Part shown: positions 33,433 to 47,333 of the stretch, piece by piece | Position numbering within the stretch: position 1 is the stretch's first letter | Layout: the number at the start of each line of letters is the position of its first letter | Source of the DNA: an uncultured bacterium | GTDB lineage: Bacteria; UBP14; UBA6098 | Assembly: GCA_964459995.1 (NCBI GenBank) | Contig: CAYWOR010000001.1 | Span: 145,328 to 209,327, forward strand | Direction of reading: 5' to 3' | DNA length: 64,000 bases | Notes under the pieces: model-generated | The model's database searches: none | Told to the model about the DNA's origin: nothing | Seen by the model: the letters and a program-made list of their open reading frames with translations, nothing else | Program-made: the position numbers and the translations under genes

Positions 33433-33795
33433 ATGATTATGCTGACTCTCGCGGCGTTGGTTTTATTATTTTTCGGATGTTCGGAGCCTGAGCGTTTCGG
33501 CGACGCAGAAATCGAGGCGCGGAAGGCATCATTGTGCGAACTCGTCGCGAGTTATGAACTTTTCGTCGATGAAACTGTCAAAGTCGCCGGGATAATCGAG
33601 CGCGAAAAATTGTTATCGCGAGATTTGAAATGCTCGATAGAGGTGTTTCCGGTCGGATTCGCTTTTCCGGACAGCATTATCGGTGGAAAAGCGGAATGCA
33701 TCGGGATCGTTTTTTATCAGGAAGAAACCGACAACCCCGGATTTGCGGTTTTTGGAATTAGGGTTCGTCCACCCCGACGACGCGGAAGCCGCTAA
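33433..33795 (+). CDS. Small lipoprotein, unknown function (about 120 aa)
   Basis: The ORF runs 33367..33795. The internal start MIMLTLAALVLLFFGCSE gives a canonical lipobox signal. Its 3' end overlaps a convergent minus-strand gene by about 38 nt. Confidence 0.5.
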   Translation: MIMLTLAALVLLFFGCSEPERFGDAEIEARKASLCELVASYELFVDETVKVAGIIEREKLLSRDLKCSIEVFPVGFAFPDSIIGGKAECIGIVFYQEETDNPGFAVFGIRVRPPRRRGSR

Positions 33796-34393
33796 GCTCT
33801 CGGCTCGCGACTATATTCACCACCTCGCCGCCCCACTCGAATTCCACTGTTCGAACAACTTTGCAGGGCAAATCCTTACCTTTGCGCACCTCGATGAACT
33901 CCCATACATCGTCGGATTTAGATTTTCCTCGGCCAGTGCGCTCCATGCGCATCACGCGGAAAAAGCCGTCGCCGGACATATAGCAGAACAGTGTCTCTTC
34001 GCCGAGAAAGAGGCGGAATTTCCAGCACATTAAGCCATCGACGCGGGTTCGTGTTTTGTTGACCGCTATCGAGTCGAATTCTGCGCGGGCGAGTTCGAGC
34101 GGGAAGGCGATGAGAGCGAGTTCAGGGGCGAAGGGGGAGATTTTGTTGGCGAAATCGCATCGTTGCTCGGAGATATCGAGTGTGTCGATCCCCTCGGCGA
34201 TTGTTGTATCGTCTGCCGAAATTACGATGCATCGCGAATCGGCGATCCAGATTGAATCCGACGAAAGTCTATCTCGGAAAAAGCGCAGAAGAATCTCCGA
34301 CGAGGGCGGTTCGATAGCTATCGCCGTCAGGGAGAAAATCGAGCAGATGAAAATCGCGAAGAAAAAGTTTCTCATAATAAAAAGGGCGGACAT
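33758..34393 (-). CDS. Secreted protein, unknown function (about 205-211 aa)
   Basis: Signal peptide (MSALFIMRNFFFAIFICSIFSLTAIA). The alternative start M7 at 34375 lies just after a terminator hairpin. It converges on and overlaps the small lipoprotein gene. Confidence 0.55.
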   Translation of the reverse strand: MSALFIMRNFFFAIFICSIFSLTAIAIEPPSSEILLRFFRDRLSSDSIWIADSRCIVISADDTTIAEGIDTLDISEQRCDFANKISPFAPELALIAFPLELARAEFDSIAVNKTRTRVDGLMCWKFRLFLGEETLFCYMSGDGFFRVMRMERTGRGKSKSDDVWEFIEVRKGKDLPCKVVRTVEFEWGGEVVNIVASRELSGFRVVGVDEP

Positions 34394-34407
34394 AAGCGTC
34401 CGCCCCG
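34384..34407 (-). terminator. Rho-independent terminator on the minus strand (GGGGCGGACgcttatGTCCGCCCTTTTTATT), closing the GlmL-like/membrane operon
   Basis: 8-bp GC stem, 6-nt loop and a T-run, read on the minus strand about 30 nt after the stop of 34436..35065. Confidence 0.8.
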
Positions 34408-34435: not shown

Positions 34436-35065
34436 TTAACCGGCAAGTCCGATGCCGAGGAAATCGCGAAGCACGAAAAGAACGCGTCCGATGAAAAGGG
34501 ACAGACGCGCCATCACGGTATATCCGAAGGTTGCGCCGAAGCCTATCATCAGGAACCAAATGCCAACCTTGGCCGCGCCGCCGAAAACGCCTTTATGCTC
34601 CTTCGAGAAGAAGAAATAAATGAGCACAGTCAGCACGCCGACGAAGATTATGATGTTGTTGATGCCCTCGCCGCTTGTGAAGCTTAGGTTGAGCATCGTG
34701 GCTTCGAGCTGGCGAAGCACGCTTGCCTGCATACTTCTCGGAATGGCCATACCCGAACCCGCGCCGACCGTGAAACAAATGGCGTAACGCGACAACCAGC
34801 TGTATTTCGGCACGATACGAAGAATCATCATCAAACCGAGAATAGCCGGGATGATAAGCTCGATGCGGCCATCCTGGAAGACCGGTTGATAGAATCTCGG
34901 AATGAAGCTGTTGAAATAGATAATCACAGCGCCGTAACCGATGGAAACGCCCACTGTAACGTGTTCGGCCAGCTTGTAAAAGGGGTTGTCTTTATACAGA
35001 AAGCTGAGCACCGAGAAGGTGAAGAAAACACCTATCCAGACCCATGGATTCATTGATATCTGCAT
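34436..35065 (-). CDS. Polytopic membrane protein (about 6 TM), unknown function (209 aa)
   Basis: Trimmed from the track start at 35224 (a GTG inside the upstream gene) to the ATG at 35065 with an AAGGAG RBS, giving MQISMNPWVWIGVFF... It is the last gene of the operon. Confidence 0.65.
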   Translation of the reverse strand: MQISMNPWVWIGVFFTFSVLSFLYKDNPFYKLAEHVTVGVSIGYGAVIIYFNSFIPRFYQPVFQDGRIELIIPAILGLMMILRIVPKYSWLSRYAICFTVGAGSGMAIPRSMQASVLRQLEATMLNLSFTSGEGINNIIIFVGVLTVLIYFFFSKEHKGVFGGAAKVGIWFLMIGFGATFGYTVMARLSLFIGRVLFVLRDFLGIGLAG

Positions 35066-35069
35066 TATC

Positions 35070-35921
35070 TCAGCTCCTTGCCTTTTTTTGTCTGCTGATT
35101 GCGATATGACCGATGTTGCCGATGATGATGAACAGGATGATGATGACGTGCGCCCAGTTCTGCGCCTCCATGCCCATAGTGGCCATGCGCTTCTCATCGA
35201 TAAGGGTCTCATATTCGGCCGCACCCTTCAGCCCGCCGAGCATTCCAAGGAATTGCCCCGACTGAATATATGGATACAAATCCGCCGCTGAAACCGCTGT
35301 AACACCGGTTGCAAGGGTAACTCCGTAAGGCTCGTGGCCGAAGGTAAGCCATAGTCCGTAGGCGGATGAACCGGTAAAGCTCACTATCAGGTCGTAGTCC
35401 TCGAAGTTCTTGATATTCTGGAAAATGGGAAGCTCGGAGATAGCGGTGCCGTAATAATCGGTCGGGAAGGCACGGTTGATGTTCTCCATCATGTTCATAA
35501 CGACGATGGAATATCCGATAACCCAAGGCATGAATGCGTAATCGACTCCGTTAACCTTTTTGTAATCTGTCGCGGCTTCCTGAATCATCGGAGCGATAAG
35601 ACCGGGACCTTCGATATAGAGGCTCATCGCAATGACCTTGATGTCGTTCTTCAAACAATGCCTGAAGAGCGCATCGAACATCGGCGAAAGCTCCGGTTCG
35701 ACCGAGGGAGAGTAGTCGGCGGATAATATTACAACGTCATCGGGTGTAAGCGTCTCGATGTAATCGTAAATATCCTTGACCTCTTTTGTGATGGGGATTG
35801 GTAAACCCATTTGGAAGAAGAACGGTAGAATCATAGCCAGAGCGATAATCAAATAGATAATACGCCTGTCTATCTGAATCATCCGTTCCCAGAATGTAAT
35901 TTGTCTTTCGTCTGCCATCAT
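35070..35921 (-). CDS. Membrane-anchored protein (N- and C-terminal TM helices, large central domain), unknown function (283 aa)
   Basis: The listed start at 35972 is a TTG inside the upstream gene. Trimmed to the ATGATG at 35921 with a GGAG/AAGGGG RBS (MMADERQITFWERM...). The C-terminus HVIIILFIIIGNIGHIAI is a TM helix. Confidence 0.6.
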   Translation of the reverse strand: MMADERQITFWERMIQIDRRIIYLIIALAMILPFFFQMGLPIPITKEVKDIYDYIETLTPDDVVILSADYSPSVEPELSPMFDALFRHCLKNDIKVIAMSLYIEGPGLIAPMIQEAATDYKKVNGVDYAFMPWVIGYSIVVMNMMENINRAFPTDYYGTAISELPIFQNIKNFEDYDLIVSFTGSSAYGLWLTFGHEPYGVTLATGVTAVSAADLYPYIQSGQFLGMLGGLKGAAEYETLIDEKRMATMGMEAQNWAHVIIILFIIIGNIGHIAISRQKKARS

Positions 35922-35928
35922 ATTCCCC

Positions 35929-36585
35929 TTAATCTCCACTGCCCATATACGACCGCTCGATGCCGAGGACAATTTTCAGACTGAGCATCATAATGCCAAG
36001 CCCGATTCCGAGTCCCATGCCTCTTTTTGCGGCCATGTTCGGCACGTTGAGGATCCAGTTAGCAATATCGGTGAAAGTCGGCAATGTAGGCCATATTTTA
36101 TGCCAGAAGCTAATCGATTCGCCCAATGGCACACGTCCGAGCATAACGATAACAGCGGCGATGAGCAATGCGGTAGCTTGGGCGCTTCTTGCTCTAAATG
36201 CCCTATATGCCGCCGAGGCGATATAGAAGGCTAACAGGCTGAACATCGTCGATTCGATGGGCACGAGTATGTATGAATACATATTCATGAAAACCATGCC
36301 CTCGGAGCGTCCCTGAATGAAGCCGAACAGCGCAATTGCCAAAGACATCGCGATTGCCACGAAAGAATAGGGCCATGCCGGAGCCTTTCTTTTGATACGC
36401 ATTCCATGTGCGCGATAGAAGCTGAAATAGGCGATCAGAGACCCGAAAATGCCTATAACGACACTCCAATCGAGGAACGCCTGGAAGAATTGCTCGCTGA
36501 CTCTATGGGGCACGAAATATTGAATTCCGAAGACAAGCCCCATAATGAAGGTAATAGCGAGTGGTATTTGTTTTTTCCAAAGCAT
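35929..36585 (-). CDS. Polytopic membrane protein (about 6 TM), unknown function (218 aa)
   Basis: AGGAGG RBS. Hydrophobic helices throughout (MLWKKQIPLAITFIMGLVFGIQYF...). It lies 9 nt after the stop of the 931-aa gene. Confidence 0.7.
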   Translation of the reverse strand: MLWKKQIPLAITFIMGLVFGIQYFVPHRVSEQFFQAFLDWSVVIGIFGSLIAYFSFYRAHGMRIKRKAPAWPYSFVAIAMSLAIALFGFIQGRSEGMVFMNMYSYILVPIESTMFSLLAFYIASAAYRAFRARSAQATALLIAAVIVMLGRVPLGESISFWHKIWPTLPTFTDIANWILNVPNMAAKRGMGLGIGLGIMMLSLKIVLGIERSYMGSGD

Positions 36586-36594
36586 CGTGGCCTC

Positions 36595-39390
36595 CTAATC
36601 CCCTAAGCGGATTTTGAAAAGGTTGACGAACCATAGGAATCCGCTTGTCATCGAGATTGTTCCTAACACGATAACAACCATATAGATAGCCTTCAACCAG
36701 TCCTGCGCTTTGAGGGAACCCACCTGAAGCGGGTCCTGAGAGAGATATGCCGAAGCGGCGTAGATTTCCTCGCCAATCAGCGTGTAGTCGCAAGTCGTGA
36801 TGAAGAAGGGAATCTGTGTAACGGCGTCTGTTCCGGCAATCTGAATAGAGCCTGACATCGAGCCGGTCTCGGTTAGGATTAGCGATTCCGCGAAGAACAT
36901 ACCCATATAGAAGTTCGCCGCAGTGCGGAATCTCACCATAAGACCCGCCACCGCCGCGGCATAGGAGAACTGGCTACCGGAGGCGTAGAAAATGTCGTCT
37001 TCGTTGAAGGCATCCGGTCTGCCAGCATCCATGTAGGCCGTTTTGACTGTCTCCTGAGCGATGATGAGCACCAGCGGATCATAGCACGGGACGAGGAGTC
37101 GTGTTTGGAACTCCGCGGTTTTTTTGGCGACTCTGCCCAAAATTGTTAATCCTGCGAGTGTGGCGATATCGGAGATGCTCGAAAGTCCGAGAACGTAGAG
37201 AATAGGTCTTCCCATTTCCGTAGCACGTCCCAGCGCTTCGTCGAGATGCGCGATACCGGCAATCGGGCGAAGATAGAAGTCCTTGCCTTTTCTCGCCGCG
37301 GCCAGGAAATAGTTCACAAATATGATAAAGAGGATGACGAGAACGAGAACGATTGTCTTCTCTTTATGATAGAACTCCGATTTCGGCGTCATTGGGCCGA
37401 AAATCTCGCTGTCGGTGTAGGAGCCGTCCGGAGCGACGACTCTCGCGAAATAGCGATATTCGCCCATATCGCGAAGGCTGTCCGGCCAGTTGTCCTGATG
37501 CTGATTTTCGCGGAGATCCCTTTTGCCGACTCTCTGATAGGTAAGTTTGTTGTTTGGGTCGAAATTCGGCGTTCCTTTGAGGAAGATCTCGCTCTTTTTT
37601 TCTATGGCTGGGTTTCCGCGCCAGACTTCGAGATAATCATCCGGCCCCGGATCGGGGATCATTCCGGTTTGATTAATGTCGTATGTCCGAACGACATGGG
37701 CTTCCGGATTGGTAAGCTCGCGGCCGTTTTTATCGAGGAGAATCACCTCGAAAACATGTTCGCCGGCGGGAAAATCCGGAAGATTCATGAAGCCGAGTTC
37801 CTGATGATCGACAACCCATTTGCCCTCATCGACGCGCATTTTCGCGAAAAATATCTTGTTGTTGTCGTTGAAATATGCGTCGTAGCGGAAGGTAACATTG
37901 AATTTTTTCGCAGGGACGGACTGTTTCGCAGAATGCACTGGGAGAGCGTTTGTGGGGATTTCATCGCCCTCGGCGAAGGACACGAGCTGGTCGCCGACCA
38001 GATAATAGCCCTTCGGCATTTCTATCGGGGTGTAATCAGGAGCGAAGTCCTGAACATTCAGTGTGATGCCCGCCATCGGCAGGCCCCAGCGAAGAGCGAG
38101 GGACTGGCCGTCGTCGTTATCGACGTCATGTAAGTCGAGATCGGTAACCATCGCGGGCTGTTCGAACTTGCCTTCGACCACACCGAAAGGTTCTCCCGTG
38201 GTTCTTTGTCCGGCTTCGTCGATTGTGGCGATATAGAAAAGATCATCGGTCGTGAAATTGCCCTCGAAGATGTTACGCTCGAAATCGGCGTTAAGTTTTG
38301 CGAGGAGTTCTCCGGATTCTCTGAGTGTATCTTCCGGCGAGAATCTGCGGATCTCGTAATGATCGACATCGCGGAAATAGGACAACGCGGGCATTGCTCG
38401 ATTGGAACCGACCCAGGTTATGAGAAGTTTTCCCTGTTCGGGATCGAAAACCGCAGACATCCCAACTGCGGCCATCGGTGGCTCGTCCACAGGTATGAAG
38501 CTCCCTGTGACGGGTTCCGATTCTCTGCCTCTGCTATCTTGCGCGATTATCTTGTAATGATACTCTTCGCCGGCCTTTAGTTTGCGAATTATGAAAGATT
38601 GCAGAACATCCGAGGCTATGCTGTATCTGGCTTTTTCTGTCAGAATTGCAGTAACCTCGTGGCCGTATTTGAAAAGGAATTTGCTTTCCTGTTCGTCGAA
38701 GGGGAGAATCCTCTCGCCTGCATGGACAAAGTCGATTTCCTTTTGAGATGGTCCGACTTCGAGAACCAGCCCGCCGGTGCCTTCCGCAATTGATAATCCG
38801 GCACTGTCCGCTTGAAGACTGGATTTTTGCAAGGTTCTTTGAATATTCGCCAAGGCTTCTTCCGAGGGACTAACCCGGAAATACTTGCCATTGGCGAATT
38901 TCAGCTCGCGCTCATCTTGGCCTTCGGGACAATAGGCGCCTTCTGTGCCGATGATAAGCTCGCCGATATTTTTCAGGGAGTCTCTGTTTTCCGGCGTCGC
39001 AAGAACCACGTGCGCGAAGGGAACGCCGTCCTCGACCTCTTCGAGAACGAGATAGTATTCGCGCTCTAAAATCTTGCAAGCCATCGTGTCTTCGATAGTG
39101 AAAGTGGTGGCCTGAAGGCTTCGCGATAGCGGTTCCAGTTTGTCTAAGTGCTTATCGAGGGATTCCGGATCGGTCGTGTAATAAATGTCGTAGCGACGAG
39201 CAGACGACACGTCGAAATGTCTCCAGCTGACAATCGCGTTCGAACCGTTATCGAACGGGATGTCTGTTATCGACACCTCGACAGGTGGGGAAGGGGCTTC
39301 CCTATCACCTGCACAACCGAGCAATCCGAGACCAAAGCCGATAATGATAAGCAATAATATCGGCAGTGCTCTTACCCGTGGAAGGTGCAT
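36595..39390 (-). CDS. Large lipoprotein (931 aa): Ig/Fn3-like ectodomains plus a C-terminal polytopic membrane region; unknown function
   Basis: AAGGAG RBS. Lipoprotein signal MHLPRVRALPILLLIIIGFGLGLLGCAG. The ~650-aa extracytoplasmic region is beta-rich. The C-terminal ~280 aa hold 5-6 TM helices (IVLVLVILFIIFVNYFLAAA...IYMVVIVLGTISMTSGFLWFVNLF). Confidence 0.75.
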   Translation of the reverse strand: MHLPRVRALPILLLIIIGFGLGLLGCAGDREAPSPPVEVSITDIPFDNGSNAIVSWRHFDVSSARRYDIYYTTDPESLDKHLDKLEPLSRSLQATTFTIEDTMACKILEREYYLVLEEVEDGVPFAHVVLATPENRDSLKNIGELIIGTEGAYCPEGQDERELKFANGKYFRVSPSEEALANIQRTLQKSSLQADSAGLSIAEGTGGLVLEVGPSQKEIDFVHAGERILPFDEQESKFLFKYGHEVTAILTEKARYSIASDVLQSFIIRKLKAGEEYHYKIIAQDSRGRESEPVTGSFIPVDEPPMAAVGMSAVFDPEQGKLLITWVGSNRAMPALSYFRDVDHYEIRRFSPEDTLRESGELLAKLNADFERNIFEGNFTTDDLFYIATIDEAGQRTTGEPFGVVEGKFEQPAMVTDLDLHDVDNDDGQSLALRWGLPMAGITLNVQDFAPDYTPIEMPKGYYLVGDQLVSFAEGDEIPTNALPVHSAKQSVPAKKFNVTFRYDAYFNDNNKIFFAKMRVDEGKWVVDHQELGFMNLPDFPAGEHVFEVILLDKNGRELTNPEAHVVRTYDINQTGMIPDPGPDDYLEVWRGNPAIEKKSEIFLKGTPNFDPNNKLTYQRVGKRDLRENQHQDNWPDSLRDMGEYRYFARVVAPDGSYTDSEIFGPMTPKSEFYHKEKTIVLVLVILFIIFVNYFLAAARKGKDFYLRPIAGIAHLDEALGRATEMGRPILYVLGLSSISDIATLAGLTILGRVAKKTAEFQTRLLVPCYDPLVLIIAQETVKTAYMDAGRPDAFNEDDIFYASGSQFSYAAAVAGLMVRFRTAANFYMGMFFAESLILTETGSMSGSIQIAGTDAVTQIPFFITTCDYTLIGEEIYAASAYLSQDPLQVGSLKAQDWLKAIYMVVIVLGTISMTSGFLWFVNLFKIRLGD

Positions 39391-39454
39391 CCTCGCTCCT
39401 TTTCTGAGTATCTAATTTATCAATTTAACTTCGATCATTTAACCAACAAGAATA

Positions 39455-39489
39455 AATCGAAAAATTCAGAAACGCAAGTGATTCTTGCG
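39455..39489 (-). terminator. Intra-operon stem-loop/attenuator on the minus strand (CGCAAGaatcaCTTGCGTTTCTGAATTTTTCG) between the 378-aa and 931-aa genes
   Basis: 6-bp stem followed by a U-rich tract in the 100-nt gap, and a possible internal promoter (TTGTTG...TAAATT) before the RBS of the 931-aa gene. Confidence 0.45.
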
Positions 39490-39491
39490 GT

Positions 39492-40628
39492 TTAGAAATT
39501 TTCGATTGTTTCGACATTTGCGCGAGGGACGATTGCCCTTGCGCCTTCGTCGAATTCGACCTCGAGCACTCTGGCTTTCGATTCGCTCTCGAGGACTCGA
39601 AGCTCCGGCGGCAGAGCTGTAACTTTGCCTATTTTGCCGAAATAGGGGTATCTAATTACCCTAACTTGGCTTCCGATGCTGAGGCCGATTGTCTCTTCCG
39701 TGCCCTCTGGAGTAAACCCTGCGGGAGGTTCGGATTGGGCTATCACAATTTCCGGGCGGATAACACCGGCTCGTATTTGAGTTGCGCCGTTGACGCTTGC
39801 GCCTTTGCCCTCGAATTTTTTTAGTATCTCGAAAGTTCTCTGCGCCATAGGTATTTCGCCGAAACCTTCGGTTGTAACTATTGCCGTGTAAACGTCTTCG
39901 GAGCCGGTGATTGCGACGCCGATGTCATAGCCGAGAATCTGGCGAAGGTCGCGGTCATCGACGCCTCCGGCGACGATGGCCTTCACGCCTATGCTGATGG
40001 CTTTTCTATATGCGCCGGAGGTGATTTTTCTGCCGCAGACGATTACTTTTCCGCGGTGTTCTTCTTTTACCATTTCCTCGGTGAGATCGCCGGTGTTGTC
40101 TTTGGTCAGCACGATAATTTCGCCGAATCTTTCGCCGCCGATTCCGAAAATTCCCTGAATGAATGTCGCATGAGTTGTAATAATGGCGCCCTCATCGGGG
40201 ATAATTTCGGTAACTTCGCCCTCGACATAGGCGGTGGCTTCGATTGGGATAGGCAAAGCGCGGAAAAGAACGTTGCCCGTAACAGGGCTGATAGATTCGA
40301 TTGAACCCTCGAAGGGGGCTTTTACACTTGTTTTGAAGAGTCCCGTGCTGAAAATCCCCTTATTTCTCGCGACAATTTGCCCATCGGTGATTTTGTCGCC
40401 CTCTTTGACCAACATGAAGTATTTTAGGTCTTCGGCATCGCAACCGAGGAGGTTGGCGATGTTCATTTGTTCGACATTTCCCGGAAGATCGGTTTTCGCG
40501 ACAACATCGGTCGGTTTGACCTTGTCGCCGACTTTGGCAACAATCTCGCCCTTCAACGGGAGAATGCGTTTCTTCATAATTTTAGTATATTCCGTGACTT
40601 TAAGACCCGGTGTATATATGTGTCCCAT
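39492..40628 (-). CDS. Conserved soluble protein partnered with the GlmL-like ATPase, unknown function (378 aa)
   Basis: GGAGAG RBS. It starts 9 nt after the GlmL-like stop. Gly-rich motifs (GIFGIGGERFGEIIV; GVKAIVAGGVDDRDL; TEGFGEIPMA; NGATQIRAGVIRP). No signal peptide and no TM. Confidence 0.7.
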   Translation of the reverse strand: MGHIYTPGLKVTEYTKIMKKRILPLKGEIVAKVGDKVKPTDVVAKTDLPGNVEQMNIANLLGCDAEDLKYFMLVKEGDKITDGQIVARNKGIFSTGLFKTSVKAPFEGSIESISPVTGNVLFRALPIPIEATAYVEGEVTEIIPDEGAIITTHATFIQGIFGIGGERFGEIIVLTKDNTGDLTEEMVKEEHRGKVIVCGRKITSGAYRKAISIGVKAIVAGGVDDRDLRQILGYDIGVAITGSEDVYTAIVTTEGFGEIPMAQRTFEILKKFEGKGASVNGATQIRAGVIRPEIVIAQSEPPAGFTPEGTEETIGLSIGSQVRVIRYPYFGKIGKVTALPPELRVLESESKARVLEVEFDEGARAIVPRANVETIENF

Positions 40629-40637
40629 TTCGCTCTC

Positions 40638-42509
40638 CTATTCCTTTATCAAAGCGCTTTCGGGGTAAACATTCAGCGCGAGAAGCCATTTTGTGAGCGC
40701 TTCGACCCTTTCCTGTTTATCCATCGGGATTTCAATCGGCCTTCCGCGGCCGTCGAGAATAATGCCCACAACGCCGCCATAGACCTCTTTTTCGACCTTT
40801 TTTCCTCCGCCGGCGCCGATATCGAAAGAGCGCGAAGGGGAGAAGCTGATGGTCGCTTTTTTGCCGACAGCGAGATCGAACTTTTTCATCTCTCCGAATT
40901 TAAGCTCGCCCTCGTGGACTTCGCCGTCTTCGGTTTGGATGTGATAATGCCCGACCGAGCCGCCCGGTTTGGTGGTTCCGGCGGGGGATACCGAAGTGCC
41001 GAGATAGATAAGGCAGTCTTTGTGGAAAACCTCGGTTGCGGCCTTTGGGTGTATCGTCGAAAGGACTCCGAGTTGGGGCATCATGAAGATGGAGTCCACT
41101 GCGAGAGTGGTAAAACCCTGCGGTTGGAAAGCGTCGAGAAGCATCATAGCTCCCTGACTGCGTCGTGGCGCGTGCGAGAGAACGCCGCCGGACCCGATGA
41201 GAATATCCAGCCCCATCAGATCGACGATTGTGTCGCTATCGACCTGCTCGAAAGCCTCCGAGATTGTTCTTTGTTTTTGAACACCCTTCAGCGTAGTCGC
41301 GAAATTGCAGTGTTGAATGAAAGCCAGTCTAAGAGCTTCTCGCGCTAAGGCTTGCTCGAAAATGAGTGTTGACATTGCCTGCGGGATGGTTGTGGGGCGC
41401 ACCATTTTGTTCTTCACCTGATTGCGAAGCTCGACCTCGTCGAGATCGTAGGGCACCCATCTCATAATGTTTGCAAGCCCCGCCTCTTTGAAAACATTGC
41501 TAATCGAGTAGCTCATTCCGAGGTTAGCCGATACGGTGCGGTTGAAAATCGTCCGTGGGTTCTCTGATTCGTGCTCGGGTTTGAGGTCGTTATATGAGGG
41601 ATTTTTAAATACGCTGAAAACGTCGGTTGTCGCGCCGCCGATATCGACACCGAGCACCTGAATGTCCTCCTCGTCGGCGACACGTTTCATAATTGCGCCC
41701 ACAGCGCCGGGGGTCGGCATAATCGGGGCGTCGGCCCAGCTCATGAGCTTTTTGTAACCGGGGGCCTGCGCCATCACGTGCTCCATGAAGAGGTTGTGAA
41801 TCATCTCGCGCGCTGGTTTGAGATTTTCCTCTTCGAGCACCGGCCGGATGTTATCCACGATACGGAGATCGACCTTTTCGTCGAGTATTTCTTTGACATT
41901 CTCTCTAGCGCCGACATTTCCGGCATAGATAACCGGAAGCTGATAACCTATTCCGAGCCTCGGTTTTGGGTCAGCGGCGGATATAAGCTCTGCCAGTTCG
42001 ACTACATGGGAGACGGTTCCGCCGTCGATTCCACCGGAGAGCAGGATCATATCCGGTCTCAGCTGGCGAATGCGCTCGATTTGCTCGTGGGGAAGGCGCT
42101 TGTCGTTCGATGCGATTGCGTCCATTACAATCGCGCCCGCACCGAGAGCGGCATGTTCGGCGGATTTTGCGGTCATCGATTTGACAACCCCTGCAACCAT
42201 CATCTGAAGACCGCCGCCGGCGCTGGATGTCGAGATATAGATATCACAGCCCTTTTCGCCTTCACAAGGTCTCATTATTTGATCATTTGCGCCGACGAAC
42301 TTGCGTCTCGCAAGCTCCTCGACCTCTGTAACCGCGTTCAAAACACCCATAGTAACGTCCTCGAAAGGCGCTTCTACAGTGGTTGGCGCCTCGCCACGCA
42401 CTATCAGGCGATATTCCCCGTCCACATACATAATCAAGATAGCCTTAGTGGTGGTGGAGCCGCAGTCCGTTGCGAGGATTACCTTGATATCCTCGGGGTT
42501 CTTACTCAT
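40638..42509 (-). CDS. GlmL/MutL-family (glutamate mutase L-like) double ASKHA-fold ATPase, 623 aa; orphan, with no B12-mutase subunits nearby
   Basis: AAGGAG RBS. N-terminal phosphate-1 motif VILATDCGSTTTKAIL and a second ASKHA motif VLGVDIGGATTDVFSV, which is the characteristic GlmL/MutL pair. It is larger than canonical GlmL (about 460 aa). Confidence 0.75.
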   Translation of the reverse strand: MSKNPEDIKVILATDCGSTTTKAILIMYVDGEYRLIVRGEAPTTVEAPFEDVTMGVLNAVTEVEELARRKFVGANDQIMRPCEGEKGCDIYISTSSAGGGLQMMVAGVVKSMTAKSAEHAALGAGAIVMDAIASNDKRLPHEQIERIRQLRPDMILLSGGIDGGTVSHVVELAELISAADPKPRLGIGYQLPVIYAGNVGARENVKEILDEKVDLRIVDNIRPVLEEENLKPAREMIHNLFMEHVMAQAPGYKKLMSWADAPIMPTPGAVGAIMKRVADEEDIQVLGVDIGGATTDVFSVFKNPSYNDLKPEHESENPRTIFNRTVSANLGMSYSISNVFKEAGLANIMRWVPYDLDEVELRNQVKNKMVRPTTIPQAMSTLIFEQALAREALRLAFIQHCNFATTLKGVQKQRTISEAFEQVDSDTIVDLMGLDILIGSGGVLSHAPRRSQGAMMLLDAFQPQGFTTLAVDSIFMMPQLGVLSTIHPKAATEVFHKDCLIYLGTSVSPAGTTKPGGSVGHYHIQTEDGEVHEGELKFGEMKKFDLAVGKKATISFSPSRSFDIGAGGGKKVEKEVYGGVVGIILDGRGRPIEIPMDKQERVEALTKWLLALNVYPESALIKE

Positions 42510-42846
42510 CTGAACTCCTTTTCTTCTTCTTTGGGCCGTAGAGAGAATCGGCCGCCTCTATTTTTTTCGCAAAAAGCTCCATTGCATCGCGCTTTTGAAA
42601 GGCGCGGCGCAATATTTGAAGCTCTTTGATATTGAACAAATAAACCGTAATCGGTTCGACTAATAGCATCAGCTGACTGCTGACCCAATTTAAGGGTTTG
42701 AAACTTTCGACAAGCATAAGTGCCGGCACAGTTAATCTGCGCTCCACTATCTCTTTTGCAAGTTTCTCAAAAAGCGCGATTTCATCTTCCTGAATCTCAT
42801 CGGAGAATTCTTTGTCCCAATCGACATGCCAGAAATCCTCGCGCAT
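42502..42846 (-). CDS. Small acidic protein, unknown function (114 aa)
   Basis: Trimmed to the ATG at 42846 (MREDFWHVDWDKEF...), 1 nt after the upstream stop. Its 3' end overlaps the GlmL-like start by 8 nt. Confidence 0.5.
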   Translation of the reverse strand: MREDFWHVDWDKEFSDEIQEDEIALFEKLAKEIVERRLTVPALMLVESFKPLNWVSSQLMLLVEPITVYLFNIKELQILRRAFQKRDAMELFAKKIEAADSLYGPKKKKRSSDE

Positions 42847-42847
42847 A

Positions 42848-43264
42848 TTAGCTTTCCGCCTTTGTATTCGCCTTTTCGACCATTCCGACGATGAAGGATT
42901 TTGCCTCGTCACAAATCACAGGCACCATCCACCCGCGGTAGTTGTCGAGTCTGCGAGGTTTCTCGAAGGGCGACAAGAAAACCGCCCTCTCGCCGATTTC
43001 GACGCGTTTGAACTCGTGCCATTTACGCACGCGCTGAAATCCGAGGAATTTCTCGCCGATGCCGATTTCGTCGGCGTAGTAATAGGTTTTGAAAAAGAAC
43101 TTCGACGACGCGAAGGTCATCATAATCACCGCGGCGAAACCCATTGCATAGTTGCCGTCGGATGCCCATGTCAAAACGATTCCGGAAAGAACGATTATTA
43201 TGACGGCGAACCAGGTTTTGGCTTTGAACTCCTCGGCGGGCCATATTGACCAGGAGTATTTCAT
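42848..43264 (-). CDS. Small membrane protein (2 TM plus a bacterial PH-like C-terminal domain), 138 aa
   Basis: MKYSWSIWPAEEFKAKTWFAVIIIVLSGIVLTW...AAVIMMTFASSKFFF, then a soluble ~70-aa domain. ATGA overlap with the upstream small gene. Confidence 0.55.
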   Translation of the reverse strand: MKYSWSIWPAEEFKAKTWFAVIIIVLSGIVLTWASDGNYAMGFAAVIMMTFASSKFFFKTYYYADEIGIGEKFLGFQRVRKWHEFKRVEIGERAVFLSPFEKPRRLDNYRGWMVPVICDEAKSFIVGMVEKANTKAES

Positions 43265-43467
43265 TTCGCTTCGATTCGCCCCTTATGGATTCTGTTGACT
43301 TCTTGAAGTAAATCCTCGCCGTCGATGATGCCCTTTTTAATCAAAAGGGTAACGAGCGCTTGATATGTTACATTATTCGACAGTGCAAGTTGTTCGACGG
43401 TAACTTCTTGGACAGTTCCATCCGGTTGCGTTAATTTCAAAATAGCGTTGCTTTTATTTTCTGTCAT
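43261..43467 (-). CDS. Small protein (68 aa), unknown function
   Basis: MTENKSNAILKLTQPDGTVQEVTVEQLAL... It starts 1 nt after the stop of the LpoA-like gene and has ATGA coupling to the next gene. Confidence 0.45.
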   Translation of the reverse strand: MTENKSNAILKLTQPDGTVQEVTVEQLALSNNVTYQALVTLLIKKGIIDGEDLLQEVNRIHKGRIEAK

Positions 43468-43468: not shown

Positions 43469-45289
43469 TCAATCGATTCGCCTTGGAGTTTTTCTATCGA
43501 AAATTACTAATGTTGATTTTAGATTTGCCCCGGAGGCATCGAAATCGACCATTCCGCTTGGGCCGGCATAATCGGAAATACCCGAGATGTAGTCCCTTAG
43601 CTGATCCGGAGTGATAGCCCCGCTCGCAAAGCCTTTGCATATAATATTCGCGGCGTCATAGCCATAGGCGGCTATCTGGTCTGGTTCGTAGCCATATGTT
43701 CTGCGGTATTCGCGGGCGAAGCTCTCCCAGCGGGGATTATCCTTGTCCGACCAGAAATTATCCGCGACGACTATCGAGCTGTCGATATATGCGGCGTCCA
43801 TCGTGCGGACATCCTCGATAATCCAGCCGTTAGAGCCGAGAAGTCTTGTTCGAATATAATGGAAAGGGACCTGCGGCAAAATATTAACGAGGTCCTCGAA
43901 ATATGCGGGCACGAAAAGCGCTGGAATATTGACAATCCATTCATCTTCTTTTCGCATCGAGCCGTCGGGTTTGTAAAAGCGTGTATCCGAGGTGTCCGAG
44001 CGGGCAACGAGGCGTTGCATGCGTTTGTAATAGGGTTCTTTTATTGTCTTGAGCTGTTGCGAAAAATCGACTGTGCCATCGGTGTAATATGCCACACTAA
44101 CCAATTCGCCGCCTATCTCGTCGATTTTGCGTGCGAAATTCGCAGTCGCTTTTCTTCCGATTGGGTCGTCTGGCGCGAGAGCCGAGAACTCTGTTATGCC
44201 GAGATTAGTGTGCACCCATTCGACAAGCTTCACCGCTCCGACCGAGGGTGGAGTTGCAATCTGGAAAACATATGGCGAAAGCCCCGCGAGACCGTCCTTG
44301 CTGGCTGTGGGGGTTATCACCGGAATTCTATATTGATCGCAGAACGCGCCGATACCTACCGCGACATCGGATGTAAGCGGGCCGATTGCCGCCACGGGAT
44401 TCCGGCGATTGAAAACACTTCTTGCGGCATATGAGCCGACGAGAACATCCGCGCCGGTATCCTCGATAACGAGATCGATCTTTTTCCGCGATTGGGTTTC
44501 ATACTGCGCGAATGCTAACTTAATGCCGTTTACCATGCTCCGGCCCAAATCGCCGTATTGTCCGGTGGTGGGCGCGAAAACCGCAACAGTGAGGTTATCG
44601 GAAATCTGTTTTGAAATTCGCTCGGAGAGCTTTTTCAGGCTGTCGGCATATTCGCCGTCGGGACGGCGGTTGAGGCTTCGATTGCTTATTTCGAGCGCTC
44701 TCGAGGATTCGCCGGAAAGCTCGTGACGTTTCGCGCGGATATAATCGACAAGCTGAGATGATGAGCCTTCGGCGTAATCGTTCACGATCAGAAGCTGGTC
44801 TTTCGAGAGATACCCCCAAAGCAGATATTCTACTGATTTGCGGGCTATCTGCCGAGTTTGTGCATCGGTGGAGGGGGAGTCGAGAGCGTTGAGAAAGGCT
44901 TTGGCGGCTTCGAGAGTCTGGGCTGATTGATATAGCGCATTGCCGGCATATGTCCACGCGCGTCCCGAGGCTTGATTATCCGGGAATCTACCGGCAAAAT
45001 CGGCGAATTCACGCGAGGCGATATCGTAATCGCCTGCCTTATAAGAACTTAACGCCAGCATATAATAGGTCATCGGATAATAGCGGCTACCGCGGGAATC
45101 GATAAGCAAATCTGAAAAACCGAGATGCGCTTTGGTATAATTTCCCGACCTGAACTCCGCCACCGCCGCGAAAAATCGGCTGTCCAGATACTCCGGGTTG
45201 ACCCATGCCATCGCGGTGAGCGCCGCGAGGAGGATAATGAGGCTAAATTTTCTTATGTCTATGCGCATATTTAACATAGGCCTCGGCAT
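43469..45289 (-). CDS. Secreted TPR plus type-I periplasmic-binding-protein (Leu/Ile/Val-binding-like) protein with LpoA-like architecture
   Basis: The track ORF runs to 45523. Plausible starts are 45289, 45277 and 45268 (MPRPMLNMRIDIRKFSLIILLAALTAMA signal). N-terminal TPR-like helices (YYMLALSSYKAGDYDIASREFADFAG...). The C-terminal PBP1 domain (AAIGPLTSDVAVGIGAFCDQYRIPVITP...) mirrors the TPR+PBP1 layout of LpoA. Confidence 0.6.
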   Translation of the reverse strand: MPRPMLNMRIDIRKFSLIILLAALTAMAWVNPEYLDSRFFAAVAEFRSGNYTKAHLGFSDLLIDSRGSRYYPMTYYMLALSSYKAGDYDIASREFADFAGRFPDNQASGRAWTYAGNALYQSAQTLEAAKAFLNALDSPSTDAQTRQIARKSVEYLLWGYLSKDQLLIVNDYAEGSSSQLVDYIRAKRHELSGESSRALEISNRSLNRRPDGEYADSLKKLSERISKQISDNLTVAVFAPTTGQYGDLGRSMVNGIKLAFAQYETQSRKKIDLVIEDTGADVLVGSYAARSVFNRRNPVAAIGPLTSDVAVGIGAFCDQYRIPVITPTASKDGLAGLSPYVFQIATPPSVGAVKLVEWVHTNLGITEFSALAPDDPIGRKATANFARKIDEIGGELVSVAYYTDGTVDFSQQLKTIKEPYYKRMQRLVARSDTSDTRFYKPDGSMRKEDEWIVNIPALFVPAYFEDLVNILPQVPFHYIRTRLLGSNGWIIEDVRTMDAAYIDSSIVVADNFWSDKDNPRWESFAREYRRTYGYEPDQIAAYGYDAANIICKGFASGAITPDQLRDYISGISDYAGPSGMVDFDASGANLKSTLVIFDRKTPRRID

Positions 45290-45749
45290 GATGTTTAAGC
45301 ATTTCGTAATCCTCGTCGGAAAGGTCTCTAAGCTTCTGTGCTGGGACTCCGGCGACGAGAGTGTGCGGCTTGATCTTTTTTCCGGGCGGAATAAGCGCTC
45401 CCGCGCCGACAACCGCTCCGGTTCCGATAACCGCGCCGTCGAGAACAATGGCACCCATTCCGATAAGACAGCGGTCTTCGATTGTGCATGCGTGCAAAAC
45501 CGCGCCGTGTCCCACTGTAACATCCTCGCCGATTATCACAGGGGTGTTAGAATCGACATGGACTGCGCAGAGGTCTTGAATGTTGGATCTCGCGCCGATT
45601 TCGATGTAATTAATATCGCCGCGAAGAACCGAACCATACCATACAGAAGCGTCCTCTGCGATTCTGACATCGCCGATAATCTCCGCACTTTCCGCGACAA
45701 AAGCGGAGCTGTGAACCGATGGGGCTTTGTCTTCAAAATGCATTTCCAT
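45243..45749 (-). CDS. Gamma-carbonic anhydrase / hexapeptide-repeat (LbH) family protein (168 aa)
   Basis: AGGAG RBS. Left-handed beta-helix hexapeptide repeats and a conserved His triad context (VWYGSVLRGD ... IGEDVTVGHGAVLHACTI ... GMGAIVLDGAVIG). Confidence 0.85.
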   Translation of the reverse strand: MEMHFEDKAPSVHSSAFVAESAEIIGDVRIAEDASVWYGSVLRGDINYIEIGARSNIQDLCAVHVDSNTPVIIGEDVTVGHGAVLHACTIEDRCLIGMGAIVLDGAVIGTGAVVGAGALIPPGKKIKPHTLVAGVPAQKLRDLSDEDYEMLKHHAEAYVKYAHRHKKI

Positions 45750-46211
45750 TTATTCTCCTAAGAAACCTTCCGGTTCGATGCGTCTAAGCCTTTCGTCGAG
45801 ACGGCGTCTTTGCTCGTTGGATTCATCCGCGCTGATAAGCGGGATTTCCTCCGATGCGAAAATAGGTGCGTCCATGCGAAGAGCGAGGGCTATGGAATCG
45901 GAGGGGCGGGCATCGATGACGATAAGCTCGTCCCCTTTCTGCAGATAAAGAAGCGCGTAGTAAATGCTATCGACGAGAGATGTAATAACGACGCGGGTTA
46001 GTTTAGTATTAAGGCCGAGAAGCATGGTTGCGGTGAGGTCGTGGGTCATCGGTCTGCGAGAGGTTCTGTTCGACAGTTTCATTGCAATGGCGAGGGCCTC
46101 CATATTGCCGATCCATATAGGAAGGACCTCGTGCTCGACCGTTTCAAGAAGAATAACAATATCGTTTGTCTTCGTGTCGATAGCGAGTGTGTCGATTGTC
46201 AGAAGATTCAT
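45750..46211 (-). CDS. Bifunctional nuclease (BFN/DUF151 DNase-RNase) family protein (153 aa)
   Basis: NDIVILLETVEHEVLPIWIGNMEALAIAMKL...RPMTHDL matches the BFN-domain core. Its ATGA start overlaps the upstream gene. Confidence 0.7.
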   Translation of the reverse strand: MNLLTIDTLAIDTKTNDIVILLETVEHEVLPIWIGNMEALAIAMKLSNRTSRRPMTHDLTATMLLGLNTKLTRVVITSLVDSIYYALLYLQKGDELIVIDARPSDSIALALRMDAPIFASEEIPLISADESNEQRRRLDERLRRIEPEGFLGE

Positions 46212-46882: not shown

Positions 46883-46889
46883 GAATTCA

Positions 46890-47333
46890 TCAGGCGCCGA
46901 CTACCCAGACTCTAATCTGCGGCTTGACTTCGGCGTGTAGTTTTATTTCGACATTATAGACGCCCAGCTGTTTGATAGGCTCTTCCAGCTGAATCGTCTT
47001 TCTCTCGATATTAAACCCTTTGGCTCGAAGGGCATCCAGTATCATATGCTGAGTAACAGCGCCGTAGATTTTGTCGTCTTCGCCAACCTGAACTGGGATA
47101 TCGATGCTGAGGCCTTCGAGGCTCTCGGCGAGAGTTGCAAGATTTCTCTTGCGACGTTCTTCGCGGTTGGCTTTGGCGGATTTTATCTGTTCCACACGCG
47201 CCATATTTTCACGTGTTGCGGCAACGGCGAGTTTTTTTGGGATTAGAAAATTTCGTGCGTATCCGTCTTTCACCTCGACAATTTCGCCGGCAGGACCCAG
47301 ATTAACGATGTCTTCGGTAAGAATGATTTTCAT
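46890..47333 (-). CDS. rplI: 50S ribosomal protein L9
   Basis: MKIILTEDIVNLGPAGEIVEVKDGYARNFLIPKKLA is the canonical L9 N-domain. GGAGGG RBS. Confidence 0.95.
   Translation of the reverse strand: MKIILTEDIVNLGPAGEIVEVKDGYARNFLIPKKLAVAATRENMARVEQIKSAKANREERRKRNLATLAESLEGLSIDIPVQVGEDDKIYGAVTQHMILDALRAKGFNIERKTIQLEEPIKQLGVYNVEIKLHAEVKPQIRVWVVGA

Follow-up and report, generated by a model that had tools for sequence, protein, structure and literature searches.

A MutL/GlmL-superfamily ATPase gene linked to a soluble partner and membrane protein cassettes across uncultured bacterial phyla

The Pfam family MutL (PF13941) of ASKHA proteins includes two curated families, GlmL (NF040745) and the Or-4 proteins of ornithine degradation (NF040744). 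An earlier note on the DNA studied here stated that GlmL is known only from glm operons, which overlooks the second of these families. The B12-enzyme reactivases, such as DdrAB and EutA, are also ASKHA ATPases, and their nucleotide-driven movement remodels a partner with a Rossmann-like domain. The DdrA subunit of the diol/glycerol dehydratase reactivase contains a swiveling beta/beta/alpha domain.

In this study, we analyzed a window of 64,000 nucleotides, which is the whole stretch of DNA examined, from an uncultured bacterium. All positions refer to this window, and all of the features described lie on its minus strand. The locus was compared with a set of 83 related loci out of at least 564 species-level genomes and with loci of closer relatives. 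A literature search found no paper on these genes.

The gene unit and its ATPase

The six minus-strand open reading frames that had been reported, here called A to F, were recovered at the same positions with products of 623, 378, 931, 218, 283 and 209 amino acids, and their tight spacing was confirmed (9 nt between A and B, 9 nt between C and D, 7 nt between D and E, and 4 nt between E and F). The spacer between B and C is 101 nt, and a ribosome-binding site of the AGGAG/GGAG type precedes each start. However, the ATPase gene is not the first gene of the operon, as had been supposed, because three small conserved genes (U3, U2 and U1) sit directly upstream and are translationally coupled to it.

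The first of these, U3 (43261..43467), encodes a soluble protein of 68 aa. The gene before it stops 1 nt ahead of the U3 ATG, and the U3 stop overlaps the U2 start (ATGA). Gene calls of the source metagenome and of close relatives include U3, which has homologues in 8 related loci; searches of Pfam and PADLOC gave no match. U2 (42848..43264) encodes a 138-aa membrane protein with an N-terminal transmembrane (TM) hairpin by hydropathy, of which one segment is above the threshold here and two are in most homologues. Provided that the hairpin consists of two TM segments, the C-terminal domain would be cytoplasmic. U2 ends 1 nt before U1 and in 18 loci keeps its place immediately ahead of U1-A, and family searches including Pfam, NCBIfam and PADLOC returned no match. 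U1 (42502..42846) encodes a 114-aa protein whose middle part is hydrophobic or amphipathic and whose tail is basic; its start is M23 of a longer open reading frame, as is also called in the source record, and U1 shares its last 8 nt with the start of the ATPase gene. It is conserved in 25 loci, including one (L086) in which it stands beside an A::B fusion.

The gene preceding U3 (43469..45268) encodes a protein of LpoA-like architecture, with TPR and a type-I periplasmic-binding fold (Peripla_BP_6, E 1.3e-40; TPR; weak LppC, E 0.018), and is called as 599-604 aa in the source record and relatives. It ends 1 nt before U3, may be co-transcribed with U3 onward, and occupies the same position in 5 Zixibacteria loci.

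At the other end, the strong terminator said to close the unit was found after F (34383..34406), where a 10-pair stem (7 G-C) with a 4-nt loop is followed by TTTTATT. This hairpin is kept in one close relative (L089); in another (L090), the next gene directly follows F. Just past the terminator lies G (33758..34375), which encodes a 205-aa secreted protein and is possibly a lineage-specific tenth gene of the unit. In L089 and L090, the gene that takes this place behind F is 69% and 46% identical to G, respectively; G was not found among the 83 more distant loci, and no Pfam family matched it. A second hairpin, in the B-C spacer (39473..39489), reads CGCAAG-AAUCA-CUUGCG and is followed by a T-rich run. 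Its description as attenuator-like is questionable: the stem has 6 bp, folding of the spacer gives a z-score of -1.33, the close relatives L089 and L090 conserve the 3′ arm but not the 5′ arm, and the terminator scan did not call it. The significance of this hairpin is doubtful.

The ATPase A (40638..42509) carries both ASKHA phosphate motifs, D15-C-G-S-T-T-T-K22 and V288-D-I-G-G-A-T-T-D296, as the earlier note had read them. In 25 homologues these motifs are invariant, as are many charged residues, and their intactness points to a protein competent as an ATPase. The full Pfam MutL profile (positions 1-450) matches residues 11-499 with 444.9 bits, and the protein falls under every NCBIfam cut-off (GlmL, 249.7 vs 475; Or-4, 242 vs 600; TIGR01319, 180 vs 204). 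A conserved C-terminal extension of approximately 120 aa follows, and no relative was found in the PDB by sequence or by profile. A is a distinct long subfamily of the MutL/GlmL superfamily. Public records name A-type proteins 'glutamate mutase L', 'methylaspartate mutase' or 'GlmL-related ornithine degradation protein'.

These names and the membership in Pfam MutL would be expected if A were a GlmL-type reactivase or chaperone of the ordinary kind, serving a B12-dependent mutase whose gene lies elsewhere, with membrane neighbors unrelated to it. However, A reaches only about half of the GlmL and Or-4 cut-offs, lies below that of TIGR01319 as well, and has the extra C-terminal domain. The earlier observation that A has no B12 mutase partner was also borne out: none is encoded among the large open reading frames of the window or in the 83 related loci, and neither any open reading frame of the window nor the related loci showed a B12-binding signature or gene. 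In addition, the linkage of A to B and CDEF is kept across phyla, and A::B fusions exist. We therefore regard a reactivase of this kind as extremely improbable.

The soluble partner and the membrane proteins

The statement that no motif could be assigned in the five proteins downstream of A was overstated, because B gives barrel-sandwich and KOW-like signals and C contains DUF6754 and FN3-like modules. Domain searches placed none of the proteins in a characterized complex, and PADLOC, Pfam and the PDB yielded no relative of D, E, F or U1-U3.

The soluble partner B (39492..40628) is composed of a barrel-sandwich hybrid, a swiveling beta/beta/alpha domain and a C-terminal KOW/SH3-like barrel, and its AlphaFold model has a pLDDT of 82.5. 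Its N-terminal peptide, MGHxYTPGLKV, is invariant. B has more than 7,900 homologues (90% clustering), with 438 clusters at 50% identity having E <= 1e-30, and its identity to the window protein in relatives is 50-59%. An invariant loop of B, G-A-T-Q-I-R-A-G-V-I-R, resembles the signature of PEP-utilizing enzymes. A PTS-like phosphorelay could be imagined on this basis, in which A would phosphorylate the swiveling domain of B, the phosphate would pass to the cytoplasmic domain of C, and group translocation would take place via D and F. However, the phospho-histidine position is held by an invariant arginine (R286), and the sole conserved histidine of B is H3 in the N-terminal tail. Moreover, C has no invariant histidine and a near-invariant cysteine at one site only, which does not match the phospho-cysteine position of cellobiose-type EIIB proteins. 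Such a relay has hardly any likelihood in our view.

The membrane protein C (36595..39390) was described as having a C-terminus of 5-6 TM segments, which is wrong; two TM segments flank a DUF6754 domain of approximately 200 aa. The protein begins with a lipobox signal peptide (LLGC) and continues with an extracytoplasmic region of approximately 650 aa made of FN3-like modules with insertions (FN3-like pieces at residues 29-75, 265-298, 320-374, 406-439 and 617-670), TM 680-698, DUF6754 and TM 904-922. DUF6754 matches residues 670-924 (E 3e-112; domain DNA 36619-37383), and the family profile of C carries FN3 (titin, E 1.7e-25). Because the signal peptide and the FN3 modules are outside and one TM segment lies between, DUF6754 is placed in the cytoplasm, and it is predicted to be a Rossmann-like domain; its model is of low confidence (pLDDT 57) and displays beta/alpha alternation. 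What the earlier note called an envelope-spanning lipoprotein is a lineage-specific form: the usual C is approximately 400 aa, with one FN3 domain and an ordinary signal peptide, and the extracytoplasmic part ranges from none through one FN3 domain to the approximately 650 aa seen here. L089, L090 and L009 have retained the giant form (71%, 52% and 37% identity), and the identity of the cytoplasmic domain to that of the window protein is 44-58%.

Of the three further proteins that had been called polytopic, D and F deserve the term, but E has two TM segments around a domain of approximately 215 aa. D (35929..36585), with approximately 5-6 TM segments by hydropathy, follows C in 31 loci at 32-47% identity to the window protein, and its alignment contains the invariant motif SAAYRAFRAR. 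When 25 members of D were compared with Pfam, no significant family was found; TMD0_ABC was sub-threshold in 10, and the best sub-threshold matches were to ABC TMD0 (E 0.0015) and an ABC-2 membrane model (E 0.34). In E (35070..35921), hydropathy places TM segments at 21-39 and 259-277 on either side of the alpha/beta-looking domain, which is predicted to be periplasmic because the invariant R19 and R20 and the basic C-tail are on the cytoplasmic side. Its conserved acidic residues are D69, E77, D127, D155, E236 and E238. F (34436..35065) has the conserved motifs LYKDNP and FFFSKEHKG. E and F are each conserved in 28 loci, with identities to the window proteins of 31-40% and 35-60%, respectively. 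D and F have no mutual homology, and neither matches the Rnf-Nqr membrane family.

The sizes and topologies of these proteins loosely parallel those of NqrA, NqrC, NqrD, NqrE and NqrF, and B has weak Pfam matches to RnfC_N and NQRA_N. An ATP-driven ion pump of NQR/RNF-like layout might thus be considered, in which B with its N-terminal barrel-sandwich domain would be the peripheral subunit, D and F the polytopic subunits of approximately 210 aa, E the subunit with a periplasmic domain, and C the subunit with a cytoplasmic nucleotide-fold domain. However, both Pfam matches are below the cut-off (24.8 vs 25.6 and 20.2 vs 25), D and F stand apart from the Rnf-Nqr family and from each other, Fe-S, flavin and NADH motifs were not found, and the likeness is limited to one common domain. 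We consider such a pump very unlikely.

Conserved linkage across phyla

B adjoins A in 53 of the 83 loci, and C, D, E and F keep a constant order and stand beside A-B in approximately 30. Two independent layouts occur, one collinear (U2-U1-A-B-CDEF) and one in which A-M-B is divergent from CDEF. The synteny of the GlmL-like gene, on which the earlier note had made its proposal depend, is therefore conserved across phyla for B and the four membrane genes, and the persistence of the linkage through rearrangement speaks for selection on the association. Loci of Zixibacteria, Calditrichota, Eisenbacteria, Fermentibacteria, Marinimicrobia and Latescibacteria have A-B together with one, two or three C-D-E-F cassettes in tandem; three cassettes follow one A-B in L004, L013 and L058, and two are present in L001, L006, L012, L016, L021, L030, L035 and L045. 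Furthermore, A and B are joined in two natural fusion proteins, P0376 (995 aa) and P0465 (1003 aa), the former encoded in the order U1-A::B-C-D-E, and CdsA adjoins the fusion locus. B is also found alone, in unrelated contexts, in Poribacteria and WOR-3 loci, and one Bacillota-like locus has A-B without CDEF nearby, which may indicate either a role of A-B independent of CDEF or merely dispersed genes.

The conserved neighbors vary by clade and include Tol-Pal, glycine cleavage and ribosomal protein genes, and they do not point to any one function. Downstream of A-M-B, Tol-Pal/YbgF is found in 9-16 loci. With the LpoA-like gene found here and in 5 other loci and CdsA at the fusion locus, these recurrent envelope neighbors would agree with a scaffold for envelope growth or division, comparable to MreB-RodZ-MreCD or the FtsA-divisome, in which an actin-fold A would polymerize or oligomerize under the membrane and position periplasmic partners via B, U1/U2 (or M) and the bitopic C and E. 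The architecture, a cytoplasmic ASKHA protein with bitopic proteins bearing periplasmic domains and small polytopic proteins, points the same way, as does the cross-phylum identity of A to the window protein (62-72%), a level often seen in proteins that make many contacts through their surfaces. However, A belongs to the hydantoinase/GlmL branch and not to the MreB, FtsA or ParM branches, and we know of no polymerizing member of that branch. Multiple tandem cassettes would be unexpected in a scaffold, and the neighbors are clade-dependent, with glycine-cleavage or ribosomal genes elsewhere. A scaffold is, on balance, unlikely.

In Eisenbacteria, Fermentibacteria and relatives, 8-9 loci have gcvT and gcvPA-gcvPB leading directly into U2-U1-A-B-CDEF. 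This arrangement would suit a membrane-anchored metabolic complex in which A would be a hydantoinase/oxoprolinase-like, ATP-dependent enzyme acting on a small molecule (e.g., in amino-acid catabolism), B its carrier or swiveling subunit, and CDEF the supplier or remover of substrate. A weakly matches Hydantoinase_A and Hydant_A_N in Pfam, its MutL-family relatives (the GlmL and Or-4 models) are found in amino-acid fermentation operons, and barrel-sandwich and swiveling domains occur in carrier and phosphotransfer enzymes. Against this, neither a hydantoinase B/oxoprolinase partner nor any other catalytic subunit is conserved nearby, B lacks both a conserved carrier lysine (K90 is conserved in <90% of 74 sequences) and a histidine in its swivel loop, the glycine-cleavage link is confined to one group of loci, and 6-7 of the 9 proteins are associated with the membrane, an unusual make-up for a soluble catabolic step. 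We think it improbable that the system is of this metabolic type.

A proposed membrane system compared with known machineries

The pairing, in a gene set shared by many uncultured bacterial phyla, of an actin-fold ATPase with membrane proteins that match no known family suggests a new kind of ATP-driven membrane machine. The earlier idea of an ATP-driven envelope machine, which was drawn from architecture only, is plausible. Our own reading, which we hold with slightly less than even confidence, is that U3, U2, U1 and A-F belong to a single conserved system of the inner membrane with nine or more proteins, in which a shared A-B energizes interchangeable CDEF modules. A and B would act as a single cytoplasmic ATP-hydrolyzing module, which is one polypeptide in some bacteria, and would dock on the strongly conserved cytoplasmic DUF6754 domain of C. 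The ATP-dependent closure of the A domains could be relayed via the swiveling domain of B and drive conformational work in the C-D-E-F membrane module, which would present the FN3 domains of C and the acidic alpha/beta domain of E to the periplasm. One A-B module would serve one to three paralogous cassettes, and the work done would most likely be transport or assembly across or at the cytoplasmic membrane. The gradient of conservation, with A above B, B above the cytoplasmic domain of C and the latter above the periplasmic E, fits the putative docking. To our knowledge, no transporter or envelope machine is driven by an ASKHA ATPase of this branch, and the analogy to transporters is therefore without precedent. 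Also against this reading are the loci with B alone or with A-B but no CDEF, the clade-dependent neighbors, and the high conservation of A, which would fit a polymer-forming or multi-partner protein as well.

Compared with GlmL and Or-4, A is in the same Pfam family and has both phosphate motifs intact, but it is approximately 160 aa longer, has a conserved C-terminal domain, is far more conserved (approximately 70% identity across phyla), and is linked to B and usually to DUF6754 cassettes instead of a B12 mutase. The parallel with the B12-enzyme reactivases lies in the Rossmann-like domain, which is here in C, and in the swiveling domain, which is here in B and not in the ATPase as in DdrA. 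However, A has no sequence or profile match to any solved reactivase, and the domain that would be its partner is anchored in the membrane and has no DxHxxG cobalamin motif. The MreB-RodZ-MreC-MreD and FtsA machineries likewise combine an actin-fold cytoplasmic protein with bitopic and small polytopic proteins, and envelope genes lie nearby in some clades; the ASKHA branch is different, the partners are not homologous, and the membrane genes here form multi-copy cassettes. Na+-NQR and RNF also have a peripheral subunit that starts with a barrel-sandwich hybrid, several small polytopic subunits, and subunits that place one soluble domain on either side of the membrane. In the present system, however, redox cofactor motifs are absent, D and F are not homologous to NqrD/E or RnfA/E, and an ATPase takes the place of the NADH or ferredoxin entry module. 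Although the fold of A is entirely different (ASKHA and not P-loop) and D, E and F have no significant similarity to transporter families, the putative working logic is that of the ECF transporters and ABC systems with a shared ATPase, since a single copy of A-B stands next to one, two or three paralogous membrane cassettes.

Gene cluster and its surroundings

The six open reading frames described in the earlier note are all present on the minus strand. They run from A (40638-42509, 623 aa), an ASKHA ATPase of the MutL/GlmL family, through its soluble partner B (39492-40628, 378 aa), to four membrane proteins, C (36595-39390, 931 aa), D (35929-36585, 218 aa), E (35070-35921, 283 aa) and F (34436-35065, 209 aa). 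The intergenic gaps from A to F are, in order, 9, 101, 9, 7 and 4 nt, and a GGAG-type ribosome-binding site precedes each of the six starts. The strong terminator reported to close the genes was found at 34406-34383 (minus strand) as a 10-pair, G+C-rich hairpin followed by a T-run. However, the unit is not headed by the ATPase, as had been proposed. Three small minus-strand genes, U3 (43261-43467, 68 aa), U2 (42848-43264, 138 aa) and U1 (42502-42846, 114 aa), lie upstream and are translationally coupled to one another and to A: U3 and U2 share an ATGA overlap, U2 stops 1 nt ahead of U1, and U1 runs 8 nt into A. Their boundaries match those called in the source metagenome record, and U3, U2 and U1 are kept in 8, 18 and 25 related loci, respectively. 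The attenuator-like hairpin suggested for the spacer between B and C proved to be weak, with a 6-bp stem whose 5′ arm close relatives do not share; folding of the spacer is no better than that of shuffled sequences (z -1.33), and an attenuator is unsupported.

Right after the terminator begins gene G (33758-34375, minus strand), which encodes a 205-aa secreted protein without a Pfam family. Two close relatives encode secreted proteins of approximately 200 aa after F, 69% and 46% identical to G, and in one of the two no terminator intervenes; G may be a lineage-specific extra component. Open reading frames antisense to A and B (40234-40668, 40467-41348 and 41778-42629, plus strand) are found again in as many as 80 related loci and were rejected as genes, since they are shadows of a highly conserved coding strand.

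Upstream, a gene for a protein with TPR repeats and a type-I periplasmic-binding fold (43469-45268, minus strand) ends 1 nt ahead of U3 and occupies the same position in five Zixibacteria loci. Its product matches Peripla_BP_6 (E 1e-40) and weakly LppC/LpoA, and might be an LpoA-like activator of peptidoglycan synthase or a membrane-tethered solute-binding protein. The region 45243-47934 (minus strand) holds rpsR, rplI and genes for a DUF3307 protein, a bifunctional-nuclease-domain protein and a hexapeptide (gamma-carbonic-anhydrase-like) protein, and an H+-pyrophosphatase gene lies at 48308-50350 on the same strand. This order is kept in close relatives, which have a further called gene, rpsF, between those for the pyrophosphatase and rpsR. 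The ATPase cluster thus comes last in a long run of housekeeping genes. In the two close relatives, whose A proteins are 91% and 83% identical to that of the window, the full order rpsF-rpsR-rplI-DUF3307-BFN-LbH-TPR/binding-fold-U3-U2-U1-A-B-C-D-E-F is retained, with a C of 935-938 aa.

Elsewhere the window contains very large open reading frames at 159-7445 (plus strand, 2428 aa), 7598-12364 (plus strand, 1588 aa), 51087-55385 (minus strand, 1432 aa) and 55291-58947 (minus strand, 1218 aa). According to Pfam, those of 2428, 1588 and 1432 aa carry Ig-like (Big_5), CarboxypepD_reg or FlgD_ig domains. A type IX secretion C-terminal sorting domain in the 1588-aa protein makes it probable that the organism possesses this secretion system. 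A 621-aa open reading frame at 17480-19345 (minus strand) matched no Pfam family at E <= 1e-5.

ATPase A and its soluble partner B

On its sequence, A is assigned to the Pfam family MutL (PF13941) of the ASKHA superfamily, with 444.9 bits against a cut-off of 27 and coverage of profile positions 1-450. Both ASKHA motifs, DCGSTTTK and VDIGGATTD, are intact as previously noted and invariant in 25 homologues; A thus retains its ATPase motifs. By curated thresholds, gene context and length, however, A is not GlmL, Or-4 (the GlmL-related ornithine degradation protein) or TIGR01319. It scores 249.7 bits with the NCBIfam GlmL model (NF040745; equivalog cut-off 475), 242 bits with Or-4 (NF040744; cut-off 600) and 180.1 bits with the TIGR01319 glmL_fam model (cut-off 204.05), the last from residue 90 onward only. 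Whereas GlmL has approximately 460 aa and no extra domain, A has 623 aa, and its residues 500-623 fall outside every model yet are conserved, with G565, G578, G579, G582, D586, R588, R590 and P591 invariant. GlmL is encoded between or beside GlmS and GlmE, whereas A has no such neighbours in the window or in 83 related loci. The claim that no B12-mutase subunit lies nearby held for the whole window, in which neither a B12-binding motif nor a mutase was found; a B12-mutase family is likewise absent among the conserved neighbours of A in the 83 loci, and a regular-expression search for the B12-binding motif returned 3 of 4,783 open reading frames, none of them credible. An ordinary GlmL reactivase, which fails these tests of GlmL membership, is therefore a scarcely tenable reading of A. 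No solved structure in the PDB was detectable for A by sequence or profile, and no Pfam match was obtained to the MreB, FtsA, ParM or MamK families.

Public records nevertheless name homologues of A "glutamate mutase L", "methylaspartate mutase" or "GlmL-related ornithine degradation protein", and some homologues of B "transcription antitermination factor NusG", the latter because of a KOW-like end. These names are probably misannotations, and the two mutase labels can falsely imply glutamate fermentation through methylaspartate in metabolic reconstructions of the carrier phyla.

B has no transmembrane segment. It combines three domains: a barrel-sandwich hybrid domain of the kind that NqrA and RnfC carry N-terminally and that RNA polymerase beta-prime also contains; a swivelling beta/beta/alpha domain, known from RraA, aconitase X and the phosphohistidine domains of Enzyme I and PEP synthase; and a KOW/SH3-like barrel at the C-terminus. 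A PDB search with B gave marginal domain matches only. A role as a biotinyl or lipoyl carrier was rejected because the key lysine is missing: Biotin_lipoyl scores 16.8 (cut-off 22.1), no modifiable lysine in an MKM or DKA context is conserved, and K90, in an xKG context, is conserved in fewer than 90% of 74 sequences. A role in a phosphorelay was likewise rejected because the key histidine is missing. The loop GATQIRAGVIR is invariant; we take it to be the counterpart of the phospho-histidine loop of PEP-utilising enzymes, with Arg where His would be expected. The swivel loop of B thus has no conserved phosphorylatable histidine of the PEP-utilising or PTS phosphocarrier type, and the sole conserved histidine of B is H3, inside an invariant N-terminal peptide. 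A PTS-like phosphorelay, for which the swivelling domain would be the carrier, fails this residue test and can hardly be entertained. An ion pump of the NQR/RNF type is also very improbable, since its basis is one sub-threshold domain (RnfC_N 24.8, cut-off 25.6; NQRA_N 20.2, cut-off 25), and D, E and F gave no Rnf-Nqr matches.

Membrane cassette and its conserved linkage

C was described as a lipoprotein with five or six transmembrane segments at its C-terminus. The lipobox signal peptide is present, but the C-terminus has two transmembrane segments (680-698 and 904-922) flanking a domain of approximately 200 aa. Residues 670-924 match DUF6754 (PF20539) over its full length (E 3e-112, 374.3 bits, cut-off 27). 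According to the family profile, the usual C has approximately 400 aa and consists of a signal peptide, one FN3 domain (titin-type, E 1.7e-25), a transmembrane segment, DUF6754 and a second transmembrane segment. Because the FN3 domain is outside and a single transmembrane segment follows, DUF6754, the best-conserved domain of C, faces the cytoplasm. The 650-aa ectodomain of C in the window is an expansion of FN3-like pieces with insertions, and such a giant form is common only to the close relatives and one other locus. Of the three polytopic membrane proteins claimed downstream, D and F stood; E has two transmembrane segments around a domain of approximately 215 aa, which is predicted to be periplasmic, so that E turns one domain to that side.

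D, E, F, U1, U2 and U3 gave no significant match in Pfam, NCBIfam, the PDB or PADLOC, the Pfam scan covering 25 members each of D, E and F. The PDB search with C returned FN3 only, and those with D, F and E, by sequence and profile, returned no credible match (the only two for E at E 0.57 and 0.72). All-against-all hhalign among the nine families detected no homology, and it supported neither C and E nor D and F as paralogues, nor M, a protein encoded between A and B in some loci, as a fusion of U1 and U2. An anti-phage defence system was rejected, as none of the nine proteins matches any PADLOC defence-system model.

Homologues of A and of B each form more than 7,900 clusters at 90% identity. 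An exhaustive search with B gave 438 clusters at 50% identity with E <= 1e-30, and a scan of one genome per species gave at least 564 relatives among 600 matching stretches listed. Labels attached to the loci include Zixibacteria, Ignavibacteria, Calditrichota, WOR-3, Poribacteria, Eisenbacteria, Fermentibacteria, Marinimicrobia, Latescibacteria and Hydrothermota, among others. All 80 kept loci come from metagenome-assembled genomes, and no cultured carrier was found among the loci returned.

The conserved linkage sought in the gene neighbourhoods was found: A adjoins B in 53 of 83 loci, and the CDEF cassette lies beside them in approximately 30, with a constant gene order wherever it is adjacent. 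A to F, together with U1 and U2 or with M, are inherited as a unit, in two layouts. The first, which is that of the window, is collinear, U2-U1-A-B-(CDEF)n; in the second, A-M-B diverges from (CDEF)n, M, which the window lacks, being a protein of approximately 260 aa with a signal or transmembrane segment, a periplasmic domain and a C-terminal transmembrane segment. A single A-B accompanies one to three cassettes, three in L004, L013 and L058 and two in eight further loci. A and B can also form one polypeptide, fused in gene order in P0376 (995 aa; L086 2029-5016, in the context U1-A::B-C-D-E) and P0465 (1003 aa), which would be handy single-chain constructs for biochemistry. Identity to the window proteins is 62-72% for A, 50-59% for B, 44-58% for the DUF6754 part of C, 35-60% for F, 32-47% for D and 31-40% for E, and declines from the cytoplasmic parts towards the periplasmic one. 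Departures from the two layouts were also observed. In Poribacteria and WOR-3 loci B stands alone amid unrelated genes. In L087 (4709-7947) and L088, with Bacillota-like surroundings (hisS, rpmE, tdk, prfA and prmC), a divergent A of 631 aa adjoins a 450-aa B variant with a duplicated barrel-sandwich domain, and no DUF6754 cassette is nearby. Of the two A-B pairs in L080, one, of the L087 type, lies beside CDEF.

The wider neighbours differ between clades. In the window's group, ribosomal protein genes and the LpoA-like gene lie upstream. In 9-16 loci of the divergent layout, a Tol-Pal cluster (tolQ, tolR, tolA-like, tolB, pal and ybgF-like; for example, L001 11631-16356 and L002 10724-11753) lies just downstream of A-M-B. 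These envelope genes and the extreme conservation of A would suit an actin-fold scaffold for envelope growth or division, but the ASKHA branch to which A belongs and the multi-copy cassettes speak against it, and we consider such a role improbable. In 8-9 loci of the Eisenbacteria/Fermentibacteria type, gcvT and gcvPA-gcvPB, with a probable gcvH between them, lead directly into U2-U1-A-B-C-D-E-F through overlapping stops and starts (L065 2944-7308, L079 3099-7392 and seven others). This linkage may reflect a superoperon restricted to the clade or may hint at function. Together with the relatives of A's family, it is what a membrane-anchored, hydantoinase-type metabolic enzyme tied to amino-acid catabolism would have in its favour; however, there is no conserved catalytic partner and B lacks the carrier residues, which makes an enzyme of this type just as improbable as the scaffold. 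All of these contexts are housekeeping, and none is universal.

Proposed mechanism and comparison with known systems

We believe that the most likely mechanism, read from the architecture and held with somewhat less than even confidence, is that A-B drives the CDEF cassettes. A-B would be a shared cytoplasmic, ATP-driven module docking on DUF6754, and the swivelling domain of B would transmit its action to the CDEF module as conformational work, which might consist of moving or assembling something at the cytoplasmic membrane, with specificity provided by the variable FN3 ectodomains and the acidic periplasmic domain of E. ECF transporters and shared ABC ATPases likewise serve several membrane modules with one energising module, but the fold of their ATPase is unrelated to that of A.

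DUF6754 is catalogued with no described function, and our literature search found no paper that mentions it; the literature searched also held no description of the A-B/CDEF system. We rate the system as new in kind, its function being taken from architecture alone. If A-B powers the membrane cassettes, this would represent a new energy-coupling principle in bacterial membrane biology and would give a first function to DUF6754 and at least five unnamed protein families. The A and B families are abundant, and knowledge of the phyla that carry them (Zixibacteria, Calditrichota, Eisenbacteria, Marinimicrobia, Latescibacteria, Fermentibacteria, WOR-3 and Poribacteria) comes almost entirely from metagenomes. 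The case also bears on the role of GlmL-type proteins, because it presents a branch whose partner clearly is no B12 mutase.

A bolder and rather doubtful extension is that this is the first primary membrane transporter or envelope-assembly machine to use an actin-fold (ASKHA) ATPase instead of a P-loop, P-type or rotary one, with a shared A-B motor that would dock on the DUF6754 domains of interchangeable CDEF modules; such a machine would be ancestral to much of the assemblage of FCB-related candidate phyla.
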